The notes beneath the pieces are model-generated. The model did not search any database. It saw only the letters and a program-made list of their open reading frames with translations, and was not told the origin of the DNA. From Chlamydiota bacterium (lineage in GTDB: Bacteria; Chlamydiota; Chlamydiia; Chlamydiales; SM23-39): a stretch of 54,650 bases of DNA. Positions 4,893 to 22,683 of the stretch are shown here, in pieces. Numbering within the stretch: position 1 is the stretch's first letter; the number at the start of each line of letters is the position of its first letter. Where the stretch lies: NCBI GenBank assembly GCA_016219355.1, contig JACRNF010000029.1, forward strand, positions 1-54,650, in the 5' to 3' direction. Both the position numbers and the translations under genes were made by a program.

Positions 4893-5891
4893 CTATTTCG
4901 CCTTAAGATTATTCCCGTTTTGGATTAGTTTCTCGATTCGAGACTGCCACCAATTTTTAAAAGAAGTTTCATCAATATCTTGGGGTGCATAGTTCGATCC
5001 CTTTTCATACTGAAGCCCAATAAATTTTATGGAAGGATCAAACAATTTTAATTCTTGCTGAACTTCTGAAAGGTTTTCAGGTTTATTATCCAGCATGACA
5101 ACAACTCTAGGTGTATAATTGGCGAGCTTAAAAAAAGCAATAAGGACTTTTCCTTTGCTGCATTTATTGGTCAAGATAATTCCTTTATAAAAAAGGGGAT
5201 AACTATTGCAATAAAATGGCAAATCTTTGAAAACCAAATGTTCTATATTAGGAAAACTATTTTCAAAGCTGACGTTAAAATTCTTTAGGTTTTGATAATA
5301 CCATTCATCCGATTTTATATTTTCCCCAAGCTCACCGCTAAGAGTAGATGATAAAGCAAGCAATTTGATGTTTTGCTTTTGCAGGTTAGATAGTACTGTA
5401 GGAATGGAAGGTTCTACAAGCATTTGGGGATTTTCTTTGGTGGCTAAAGAAAATAAAATATCCTTCTTCTCTTTGCTTAAGGGATCTATCAAATTATGCA
5501 TGATCTTAGTATGTTTTCGAATATTGGGAACATAAAGAGGAGGAAGATCTACTTGGATCAAGGTATAGTTAATATCGAATAGTACTAAAATTTCAGTTGG
5601 CTTGTTTTGAGTTAATAAATTCTCAACTTGCGGAGTTAGGTTTTCAAAAGAATCGATTGCAGTAATGTCAGCTCTCAAAGAGCAAAAATAAAAAAAACCA
5701 AATAAGCAAAAAATTAAATGTTTTATACCTAAACAACTTGAAAAATTGGTTTTGGGCTTCAGTGAAAGATCTTGCGATTCAAAGATCGTAAGTGGGTCAA
5801 TATTAGAAATATGAACCCACTTACGATCATTAAATCCCGAGGCTTTGACGAAGCCGAAAATCCAATTTTTCAAATTGTTTAGGTATAACAT
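4893..5891 (-). CDS. DUF2608-like (HAD-fold) exported protein carrying an in-frame palindromic insertion at its N-terminus
   Basis: HAD-like motifs VLFDINYTL and VMLDNKPENL; signal-peptide-like KHLIFCLFGFFYFCSLRA follows a 54-aa segment encoded by the repeat at 5724-5887. Confidence 0.7.
   Translation of the reverse strand: MLYLNNLKNWIFGFVKASGFNDRKWVHISNIDPLTIFESQDLSLKPKTNFSSCLGIKHLIFCLFGFFYFCSLRADITAIDSFENLTPQVENLLTQNKPTEILVLFDINYTLIQVDLPPLYVPNIRKHTKIMHNLIDPLSKEKKDILFSLATKENPQMLVEPSIPTVLSNLQKQNIKLLALSSTLSGELGENIKSDEWYYQNLKNFNVSFENSFPNIEHLVFKDLPFYCNSYPLFYKGIILTNKCSKGKVLIAFFKLANYTPRVVVMLDNKPENLSEVQQELKLFDPSIKFIGLQYEKGSNYAPQDIDETSFKNWWQSRIEKLIQNGNNLKAK
5724..5887. mobile_element. Palindromic MITE/RPE-like element, family A, long form (164 bp)
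   Basis: ~37-bp imperfect terminal inverted repeats (tatacctaaacaa...ttgtttaggtata) ending in TA; perfect inner 14-bp stem gatcgtaagtgggt/acccacttacgatc; second copy at 22586-22683. Confidence 0.85.
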
Positions 5892-5950
5892 AGAAGGCTT
5901 TGAAGAAGCCGAAAATCCGATTTTTCAAATTGTTTAGGTATAACATAGAA
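5841..5950. repeat. 55-bp tandem duplication spanning one end of the family A element and the adjacent start codon
   Basis: 5841-5895 and 5896-5950 are identical except for 2 mismatches. Confidence 0.9.
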
Positions 5951-6185
5951 TCCTCTGTTCCAATTAAGTGGGTCCATTTTATCAAATTGGATATTTTTTT
6001 AGATTAAAAAAGTAGGTTCTCCACAAACGGGCACTTCACTAACGGCTTCGGTGCTTCCATTTTCAATTTTTAGATCAAGCCATCTACGAATTAATTCTTT
6101 ACGATATTCAGTTGGATCAAAGTGTACAAAAACTCTTTGAAGTGTCTGTATTATAAAGCATTAAGAGCAGCTCTTAAAGTTGAGG

Positions 6186-7268
6186 TTACATGTTTTTATT
6201 TTCTAAAATCTTTAAAAAAGCACGATTAATATAGTAAATTTCTCTGCCTTTTTTAATTCCTTCAAGAATGCCTATTTTTTCTAATTCTTTTAAGTATAAT
6301 GAAGCTGTTTGCCTATGAGCAATTTTTGCCTCTTCAAGAAACTTTATCTTGCAATAAGGGTAATAAAAAATTATCTCAATTAATTCTTTTGAAAAAAGTT
6401 TAGGTAATTTTTCTTTAACATTTGCAGCTGTTTCATTCATAATTTTTTGTATAGATAGAATTTTTTCCTTTGTAAGATTAGCTGTTTGAATAATTGCTTC
6501 TAAAATATATAAAATCCAGTCTTCCCATGCATTTTTTTCAGCAATAGCTCTTAGCTTTAAATAATAATTATGTTTGTTGTCAATAATATACCTTGATAGA
6601 TAAAGAATGGGCAAATCTAATAGTTTTTTCTCTATTAAATACAGAATATTGATTATTCTGCCGCTTCTTCCATTTCCGTCATAAAAAGGATGTATAGCTT
6701 CAAATTGATAATGGATGATAGCTGATTTAATCAAGGGATCTAAATCGTTTTCTAAATAAATAAATTTTTCTAAATTATCTAATTTTTCTCTAATGACGGC
6801 TTCTCCTTCAGGCGGAAAATAAACGACTTCTCCAAATGAATTAACTAGTTTTGTCCCGGGTAATTTTCGAATACCAACTTTTCTATTTGTAATGATATCT
6901 ACAATTTCTTCGAATAAGGATACATTTAGCAATCGTCCTTTTTTTATACTATTGTAGCCATGCCATAAAGCATCTTTATACCTTAAAACTTCTTTTGTAT
7001 TGGGATCTGTATTTACATTGTTTTCCCCAAAAGCTCTGTATAATTCATCATTAGTTATTACAATGTTTTCTATTTCTGAGGATAATTTGGCTTCTTGAAG
7101 TCCAATGATTTGAAGTAAAATTGCTTGGTTAGGAATTAAATTTGCAATTCCTTTTAGTTCAGCAATTTCCTTATTGGCAATAATTGCCTTTTTTAAAATT
7201 TGAGGAGTTTCCAAATCACATTTTGGAGGAAGTAAAGGAAGCTCATTAAAAGGTTTATTTGGATCCAA
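6186..7268 (-). CDS. Fic-domain protein (AMPylase) with N-terminal inhibitory motif and probable C-terminal HTH
   Basis: Canonical Fic motif HPFYDGNGRSGR; SSEIEN matches the (S/T)xxxE(G/N) autoinhibition motif; C-terminal HRQTASLYLKELEKIG is HTH-like. Confidence 0.92.
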   Translation of the reverse strand: MDPNKPFNELPLLPPKCDLETPQILKKAIIANKEIAELKGIANLIPNQAILLQIIGLQEAKLSSEIENIVITNDELYRAFGENNVNTDPNTKEVLRYKDALWHGYNSIKKGRLLNVSLFEEIVDIITNRKVGIRKLPGTKLVNSFGEVVYFPPEGEAVIREKLDNLEKFIYLENDLDPLIKSAIIHYQFEAIHPFYDGNGRSGRIINILYLIEKKLLDLPILYLSRYIIDNKHNYYLKLRAIAEKNAWEDWILYILEAIIQTANLTKEKILSIQKIMNETAANVKEKLPKLFSKELIEIIFYYPYCKIKFLEEAKIAHRQTASLYLKELEKIGILEGIKKGREIYYINRAFLKILENKNM

Positions 7269-22518: not shown

Positions 22519-22585
22519 TTCAAGAGCAATTTTTTATCTAAAATAAGTTATTGCAAATGGATGGATAATATTCAACTAGATCTTT

Positions 22586-22683
22586 TATACCCAAACAACC
22601 TGAAAAATTGGGTTTTCGGCTTCGTCAAAGCCTCAGATCTTTCACTGAAGCCCAAAACCAATTTTTCAGGCTGTTTGGGTATA
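22586..22683. mobile_element. Palindromic element family A, short form (98 bp)
   Basis: tatacccaaacaacctgaaaaattggg...ccaatttttcaggctgtttgggtata; matches the reverse complement of 5724-5887 with the central 66 bp absent and a few substitutions. Confidence 0.85.

Follow-up and report, generated by a model that had tools for sequence, protein, structure and literature searches.

A TA-flanked palindromic element at the start of a chlamydial DUF2608 gene and its in-frame relatives in other genes

The beginning of one gene of a groundwater chlamydia raises the question of how a long palindrome can lie inside a reading frame without closing it, and whether a gene interrupted in this way can still be read. 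The gene, a member of the DUF2608 family (PF11019), belongs to a stretch of 54,650 nucleotides (contig JACRNF010000029.1 of assembly GCA_016219355.1, positions 1 to 54,650 of the forward strand), which as a whole we call the window, and the analysed genome (G000) is a 1.55-Mb draft metagenome bin of 100 contigs. In the reading which we hold with considerable confidence, the palindrome is a non-autonomous miniature inverted-repeat transposable element (MITE) of the IS630/Tc1-mariner type, which inserted at TA into codon 2 of the DUF2608 gene, kept the open reading frame (ORF) and was followed by a 55-bp tandem duplication.

The insertion, its empty site and its sister copies

The features of the gene and of the element are the following.

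4893..5891, minus strand: DUF2608 (PF11019) ORF, 332 aa including the insert, 278 aa when it is removed
5670..5723, minus strand: displaced signal-peptide-like segment KHLIFCLFGFFYFCSLRA (ancestral residues 3-20), from the translation
5724-5725, no strand: left copy of the TA target-site duplication; every complete copy is TA-flanked and the empty allele keeps a single TA
5726-5885, minus strand: 160-bp palindromic MITE, TACCTAAAC...GTTTAGGTA, by its inverted repeats, 25 genomic loci and hairpin
5726-5768, plus strand: left terminal inverted repeat arm, with its partner at 5843-5885
5771-5841, no strand: inner palindrome (core), conserved in related elements of other genera; the same core occurs in the rsgA insert of genome G012
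5886-5887, no strand: right TA copy, which with A5888 forms ORF codon 2 (TTA)

On the plus strand the start of the gene is composed of ...AAATGTTT, TA, the 160-bp element, TA and ACAT (5888-5891), and the minus strand reads ATG TTA, 54 codons and then AAA CAT TTA. The element with one TA makes 162 bp, that is 54 stop-free codons (5724-5885, minus strand) reading YLNNLKNWIFGFVKASGFNDRKWVHISNIDPLTIFESQDLSLKPKTNFSSCLGI (Y-L-N-N-L-K-N-W ... S-S-C-L-G-I), to which the element alone contributes 53 1/3. When element and TA are excised, ATG TTA AAA CAT is restored (in translation MLKHLIFCLFGFFYFCSLRA), the old N-terminus being split after Met-Leu. Repeat analysis found outer palindrome arms at 5723-5768 and 5843-5888 (46 nt, 80% complementary) and inner arms at 5771-5804 and 5808-5841 (34 nt, 82% complementary). 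As RNA the element forms a single hairpin of -85.7 kcal/mol (z = -14.9), and not one of 200 shuffled sequences folded as well; the palindrome is far beyond chance. At 160 bp the element is below the 300 bp that bound a MITE, it contains no transposase gene, and its sole stop-free reading is that of the 54 codons. In Rfam it matched nothing but plant microRNA models with long hairpins, and these below the gathering cut-off (48 bits against 144); no match to it was found in plasmid sequences.

The public sequencing runs that contain the window stretch are groundwater metagenomes, among which X1 and X2 are most like the source and X3 comes from a different study. A 1316-nt contig of X3, approximately 94% identical, aligns in order to 5564-5723 (9 differences), 5941-6030 and 6133-6700, and its joint from 5723 to 5941 omits 217 nt that end in TA..TA, with two letters fitting either side. 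This number equals the sum of the element (160), one TA (2) and one duplicate (55). The X3 allele accordingly reads ...AAATGTTT-TA-ACATAGAATCC, and on the coding strand AGAGGA-TTCT-ATG TTA AAA CAT. Splitting the TATA ends as a duplication of AT or TATA would give a skip of 215, so that the 217 seen establish TA as the duplicated target. Other contigs of X2, X3 and X4 have loose ends that begin at 5721-5724 and 5887-5888, therefore other copies have precisely these borders. Thus, the locus carries an insertion with TA duplication and presence/absence polymorphism. The same relative differs in structure a second time, since 102 nt between the DUF2608 gene and the neighbouring Fic gene (6030-6133) are replaced there by 112 other letters.

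Copies within the genome were counted by BLAST against the 100-contig draft (E<=1e-3), which gave 25 loci on 21 contigs: 9 complete, 3 missing one end, 5 truncated where a contig stops, 4 with internal deletions and 4 short fragments. Among those truncated at contig ends, two overlapping pairs are probably single copies each, as the ends of C50 and C64, and of C2 and C58, overlap inside the element. With both TAs included, seven complete copies measure 164 bp and two 166 bp, and all nine have the form TA-TACC...GGTA-TA with unrelated DNA outside; apart from low-complexity AT runs, the sequences flanking the window copy have no match elsewhere in the genome. An earlier note, made from the letters of the window alone, had proposed a mobile palindrome inserted in frame after codon 2, with 162 bp read as 54 open codons and ATG TTA AAA CAT restored on its removal, and it had expected further genomic copies and an empty TA site. 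The exact coordinates agree with this arrangement, the copies are present (unique flanks at the window copy included), and the X3 contig supplies the empty site, with its single TA and the four codons intact.

When the nine complete copies were translated in the TA-TAC phase, one orientation was coding-competent and the other held about five stops, and the remaining two phases, read directly from the sequence, meet TAA or TGA early. The competent reading is open in only two of the nine, the window copy and that of C36; the other seven carry one or two TGA codons or a 2-nt change of length. Open frames running through the other eight complete copies do not exceed 68 aa.

Several smaller observations concern the same sequence. 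The window holds a second, internally deleted copy:

22585..22683, minus strand: 99-bp copy between divergent ORFs, found by BLAST

Mini-copies or solo ends of 32-48 bp lie within open frames of 93-135 aa at C82:2561-2597, C7:3350-3381 and C23:7330-7377. Just upstream of the DUF2608 gene, 17 nt (5965-5981) are 88% identical to the element core at 5789-5805, and inverted matches near 5957-5995 connect 5975-5995 with an element arm. Judged by this likeness, the matches at 5957-5995 may be the relic of an older half-copy; the region is still present in the X3 empty allele.

Relationship to insertion sequences of the IS630 family

Target duplication of TA is the hallmark of IS630/Tc1-mariner elements, and the ends of the MITE, which read TATACC[CT]AAACAA..TGAAAAATTGG, are related to those of IS630-type insertion sequences (IS). 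An IS of genome G029 (C121; locus L035, 145-1344) begins TATACCGAAACAACTTAAAGAA, identical to the MITE end at 19 of 22 positions. Of 300 genomes from the order, 36 encode a relative of its transposase (E<=1e-30), five of these genomes belonging to the window's own family; the clade members checked have TATACC at both ends and are complete in these relatives. Their transposase-distal end reads like TATACC[CT]AAGGAA.TTCAAAAGTTGG, and both MITE arms resemble this same end. The resemblance would fit an origin of the MITE by inverted duplication of a single IS terminus. Mobilisation would take place in trans, by an IS630 transposase.

In the analysed genome the matching IS630 survives only at contig ends. 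A 37-aa match to the C-terminus of the transposase (49% identity), followed by ...CCAACTTTTGAAGTTCCTTGGGTATA, occurs at C40 (left end) and C58 (right end), and the IS 3' termini at C40:116-141 and C58:9632-9657 are identical to the first 26 nt of the MITE end at 21 positions. An IS end of the 5' type lies at C48:30952, 141 nt from the right end of C48. The IS630 link suggested in the earlier note has therefore gained TATACC-terminated ends in this genome, at moderate identity.

The only complete IS630 of the genome (C95:10127-11413) was considered as partner and rejected, as its ends, TATAGATCTTTGCAAATG..., are unrelated to the MITE end; the two IS630 transposases, when compared, showed no significant similarity. 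The C95 element has 25-nt inverted ends, 92% complementary, and is present in several copies, because its end overlaps the right end of C13 and the left end of C56 by 139-140 nt. Among 80 listed public loci with the end motif, tblastn with two IS630 transposases returned nothing, and no autonomous copy was seen when 34 adjacent open frames were viewed by eye.

A higher-GC relative (G018; L024, L027) has a different short repeat, common with the MITE only in the first 35 nt of the end (89%), which recurs 115-149 nt from several contig ends. The shared end suggests that several MITE families may use one transposase type.

Start codons of the DUF2608 gene and competing explanations

How the gene begins is complicated by a tandem duplication, which the earlier note did not mention.

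5840..5949, no strand: two tandem 55-bp units, 5840-5894 and 5895-5949, 53/55 (96%) identical
5889..5891, minus strand: proximal ATG, in frame with the 332-aa ORF, without a Shine-Dalgarno-like purine run upstream
5944..5956, minus strand: distal ATG (5944-5946) with the ribosome-site-like motif AGAGGA (5951-5956) and TTCT (4 nt) between them, from the sequence

Each unit comprises the terminal 46 bp of the element, the TA and 7 flanking bases (ACATAGA), and the ATG is thus present twice. The distal ATG, which is the gene start in the X3 empty allele, has been shifted to the +1 frame, 55 not being divisible by three, and it opens 38 codons up to a stop at 5830-5832 (inside a 51-aa ORF, 5830..5985). 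The proximal ATG is followed after 2 nt by the hairpin. X3 lacks the duplication, and a repeat of period 55 occurs only once in the whole genome. In 10 of 14 overlapping pairs the contig ends overlap by 139-141 nt, which indicates an assembly k-mer of 141; the duplication is probably real, because this length exceeds the 110-bp duplicated stretch.

The course of events may be reconstructed as follows. The MITE landed in the TA of codon 2 (TTA) and duplicated it; the ORF was preserved by a length of 162 bp, a multiple of three, together with an orientation and phase (TA at codon positions 2-3) that present the one stop-free reading, leaving 54 new codons between Met-Leu and the old, putative signal peptide. 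In a second event, the 55-bp tandem duplication of the element-flank junction parted the ATG next to the ribosome site from the frame of the ORF.

As to the consequence, we incline to the view that the insertion alone was frame-neutral and that the later duplication impairs translation, the DUF2608 protein being made poorly or not at all in this strain. The alternative is that the chimeric gene is expressed from the proximal ATG and gives a functional DUF2608 protein lengthened by 54 residues at its N-terminus, in which the former signal peptide acts as an internal signal-anchor or the extension is simply tolerated. Against loss of function, and in favour of such a protein, speak the ORF, intact over 332 codons, the window copy, open while seven of the nine complete copies are not, and the persistence of similar insertions directly behind codons 2-4 in intact ORFs elsewhere, just before signal peptides in two other genomes (L236, a solute-binding lipoprotein, and L266) and also in TruA (L260) and HemN (L268). 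However, the ATG that bears AGAGGA is out of frame and ends after 38 codons, the in-frame ATG has no AGAGGA-like motif, a hairpin of such stability starts almost directly behind it, and the signal peptide is shifted by 54 residues. Expression of the chimeric protein is doubtful because the duplication puts the ATG near the ribosome site out of frame, and we regard it as rather unlikely. What the earlier note called a mobile palindrome creating new peptide sequence holds as far as 54 new codons in an intact ORF are concerned, while production of the peptide here is uncertain on account of the duplication.

The gene itself is recognised with confidence (Pfam match E 1.5e-23, 84 bits against a gathering cut-off of 22.6, residues 89-305). 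DUF2608 homologues are present in 23 of 40 related genomes, approximately 30% identical and aligning only from residue 58-68 onward, and at this distance none has the 54-aa segment; in an alignment of eight homologues and one paralogue it is likewise missing from all, and several begin with a hydrophobic, signal-like stretch. These N-terminal hydrophobic segments stand at the position equivalent to KHLIFCLFGFFYFCSLRA. A search for homologous proteins returned the window's own DUF2608 protein only, and no close orthologue with or without the insert. The earlier note had named the protein secreted; the signal-like look of the N-terminus agrees with this and, being the sole basis of the term, leaves it putative.

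The remaining explanations would do away with the insertion, the duplication or the proposed transposase. That the 54 residues form a native, lineage-specific N-terminal extension and the palindrome is incidental might be concluded from the open frame, called as one gene; it is refuted by the same 160 bp at 24 other genomic loci, by an allele without the segment and by its absence from every homologue. An assembly artefact, in which a repeat copy or strain variant was wrongly threaded and the insertion, or the 55-bp duplication alone, thereby produced, has more in its favour: the bin has 100 contigs, the element breaks contigs (C50/C64, C2/C58), the 2 mismatches between the 55-bp units are of the kind expected from strain variants, and the junctions are spanned by none of the contigs listed. 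Nevertheless, both flanks are adjacent in the X3 relative and hence belong together (the placement of the element itself needs reads across the unique flank-to-element junction), the duplication is contained within single k-mers, and its period leaves no assembly-wide signature, the contig overlaps being 139-141 nt and not 55. We consider the artefact improbable. Movement by a transposase other than IS630, for example of the IS982 type, would accommodate the lack of a complete matching IS630 gene in the assembly, and is a still smaller chance: the target duplication is exactly TA, at 29 IS982 loci from 41 related genomes the MITE end never lies beside the transposase, one match resembling the terminal inverted repeat (L069) lies about 1 kb from such a transposase and faces outward, IS982 in the analysed genome amounts to a 20-bit match, and it is the IS630 ends that match the MITE end (19/22 to 21/26).

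Insertion of an IS630-type MITE remains the favoured explanation, and several findings weigh against it. The end identity of 21/26 is only moderate, and the assembly contains no complete transposase of the matching clade. The lineage that supplies the empty allele is 4-10% divergent and does not belong to the same population, and precise excision and absence of insertion are indistinguishable there. Among the contigs listed, none in X1 or X2 spans the element-flank or duplication junctions, which leaves the assembly without independent confirmation there; those contigs do not cover 5504-5695 or the junction at 5888-5934 and are uninformative either way. Among the public runs listed for the window stretch there was no RNA run.

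The DUF2608 gene adjoins a gene of an MFS transporter and lies downstream of a Fic-domain gene, its upstream neighbour (6186-7268, minus strand), which encodes a SoFic-like Fic/DOC-domain protein (Fic_N, Fic, SoFic-like_C). Between the two genes stands a candidate promoter:

6150..6177, minus strand: promoter-like site TTAAGA-16-TATAAT, by a 10/12 consensus match only

The family in other genomes and its likeness to known repeats

DNA similar to the element was found in 12 of the 40 related genomes, some with at least 20 matches, and the end motif occurs mostly in chlamydial metagenome-assembled genomes (MAGs). The 80 listed loci include 33 named Chlamydiae, Simkaniaceae, Rhabdochlamydia, Parachlamydiales or Anoxychlamydiales and 14 named Verrucomicrobia(e), the phylum in which GTDB places the class Chlamydiia; 16 have an inverted pair of end motifs 97-222 nt apart. 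At one of the public loci (L135, from a MAG labelled 'uncultured Verrucomicrobiae') 822 nt are 90% identical to C36:16345-17163, far closer than at the others, which may point to a close relative or to a mobile or transferred gene common to both.

The family was surveyed with the 54-aa peptide as query, which makes the counts blind to the remaining phases and the opposite orientation. The reading was matched in 57 of 301 genomes of the order and in 48 of 172 genera, often over exactly 162 nt. Among the 150 matches listed, 17 stop-free copies besides that of the window lie in open frames of at least 200 aa, and all 17 hosts were scanned against Pfam.

L259: MutL; Pfam domains on both sides of the insert, or one profile in two stretches
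L270: RecC; the same
L269: Hsp70-like protein with DUF3731; the same
L267: glycosyl hydrolase 3 (NagZ); the same
L257: amine oxidase; profile on one side only, its first half before the insert
L256: thiamin pyrophosphokinase; profile on one side only, from profile position 11 right after the insert
L243: RsgA GTPase; from a genus in the window's own family
L236: solute-binding protein with a lipobox-like segment; ATG 1-3 codons before the element
L260: TruA; ATG 1-3 codons before the element
L268: HemN; ATG 1-3 codons before the element
L266: transglutaminase-like TPR protein; ATG 1-3 codons before the element
L265: TatD; element probably upstream of the true start
L258, L264: partial elements of ambiguous status
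L261, L262, L263: hosts without a Pfam match

Sister copies are therefore in frame in other genes. Where the left end can be recognised, in 16 copies including that of the window, the element follows an NTA codon 14 times (TTA 4, ATA 6, GTA 2, CTA 2), and this is the sole phase in which the reading is open. Five in-frame insertions (window, L236, L260, L266, L268) lie 1-3 codons past the start ATG, three of them directly before a signal-peptide-like segment; such start-proximal positions may reflect N-terminal tolerance or TA-rich start regions. In RsgA the insert is exactly 54 aa long, faces a gap in 10 of 10 aligned orthologues and falls between conserved strands. When insert-bearing RsgA was modelled with AlphaFold2 from an 11-row alignment, the predicted local distance difference test (pLDDT) stayed below 50 over residues 27-72 and the flanking strands were well modelled, which is weakly compatible with a loop, the alignment having no cover there.

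Known systems resemble this family in part. In-frame selfish DNA in genes has so far been a curiosity of Rickettsia, with an unclear mechanism of spread, and we know of no transposase assigned to the Rickettsia palindromic elements (RPEs). PMC10969869 describes in-frame integration of RPEs in unrelated genes, with 44 insertions in R. conorii genes, and PMC1458961 counts 526 RPEs in R. bellii, of which 53 lie within genes. Like RPEs, the chlamydial elements are repeated palindromes of about 100-160 bp that occur in obligate intracellular bacteria, with many copies in frame in unrelated genes, where they add a conserved peptide and leave the ORF intact. They differ in host phylum, in the clear TA duplication and in ends related to an IS630-family element, and the likeness meant here is one of behaviour. 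The Rickettsia-like behaviour claimed in the earlier note is borne out in the wider family of other genomes; in the analysed genome, with one genic copy among nine complete ones, such behaviour is seen once.

Correia elements of Neisseria, RUP of the pneumococcus and Nezha of cyanobacteria are IS630-related MITEs with TA duplication. The chlamydial element shares with them small size, terminal inverted repeats, TA flanks, strong hairpin potential of the transcript and the presumed mobilisation in trans by an IS630/Tc1-mariner transposase. Unlike these mainly intergenic elements, it is palindromic over its whole length with both ends resembling the same IS end, it has a fixed length of 160+2 = 162 bp, and one open reading is used in genes. 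MITE-borne ORFs fused in frame to genomic ORFs are described for QMITE1 of Coxiella, intragenic ERIC and large BOX in PMC10969869. These too join MITE coding capacity in frame to host ORFs; hosts and sequences are different, and the chlamydial insertions include conserved housekeeping enzymes with an exact 54-aa gap in orthologues. Full-text literature searches, which reached neither most subscription journals nor ISfinder, found no MITE or RPE-like element described in Chlamydiae, and the string 'chlamyd' does not occur in a 2024 review of MITEs.

Obtained results describe an apparently undescribed, RPE-like MITE family with an identifiable transposase type. The mechanism is an ordinary one (IS630-type, TA), and it is the habit that is noteworthy, frame-preserving and recurrent in genes across an intracellular phylum. 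For annotation this accounts for unusual 54-residue inserts and lengthened N-termini among chlamydial proteins of metagenomic origin, and it means that the DUF2608 gene studied here may not be expressed as annotated. The family offers three things that RPEs lack, a clean TA duplication, an empty allele and ends tied to IS630-family transposases, and because of these the entry of such elements into genes and their tolerance become testable. We also entertain, as a tentative possibility somewhat short of probable, that they form an order-wide superfamily of IS630-mobilised palindromic MITEs whose 162-bp length and single open reading have been selected for survival inside genes. If so, this would be a second, independent 'RPE phenomenon' with a nameable transposase type, target (NTA codons) and mechanism, in which segments of 54 residues have been added to RsgA, MutL, RecC, an Hsp70-like protein, NagZ and the N-termini of exported proteins.

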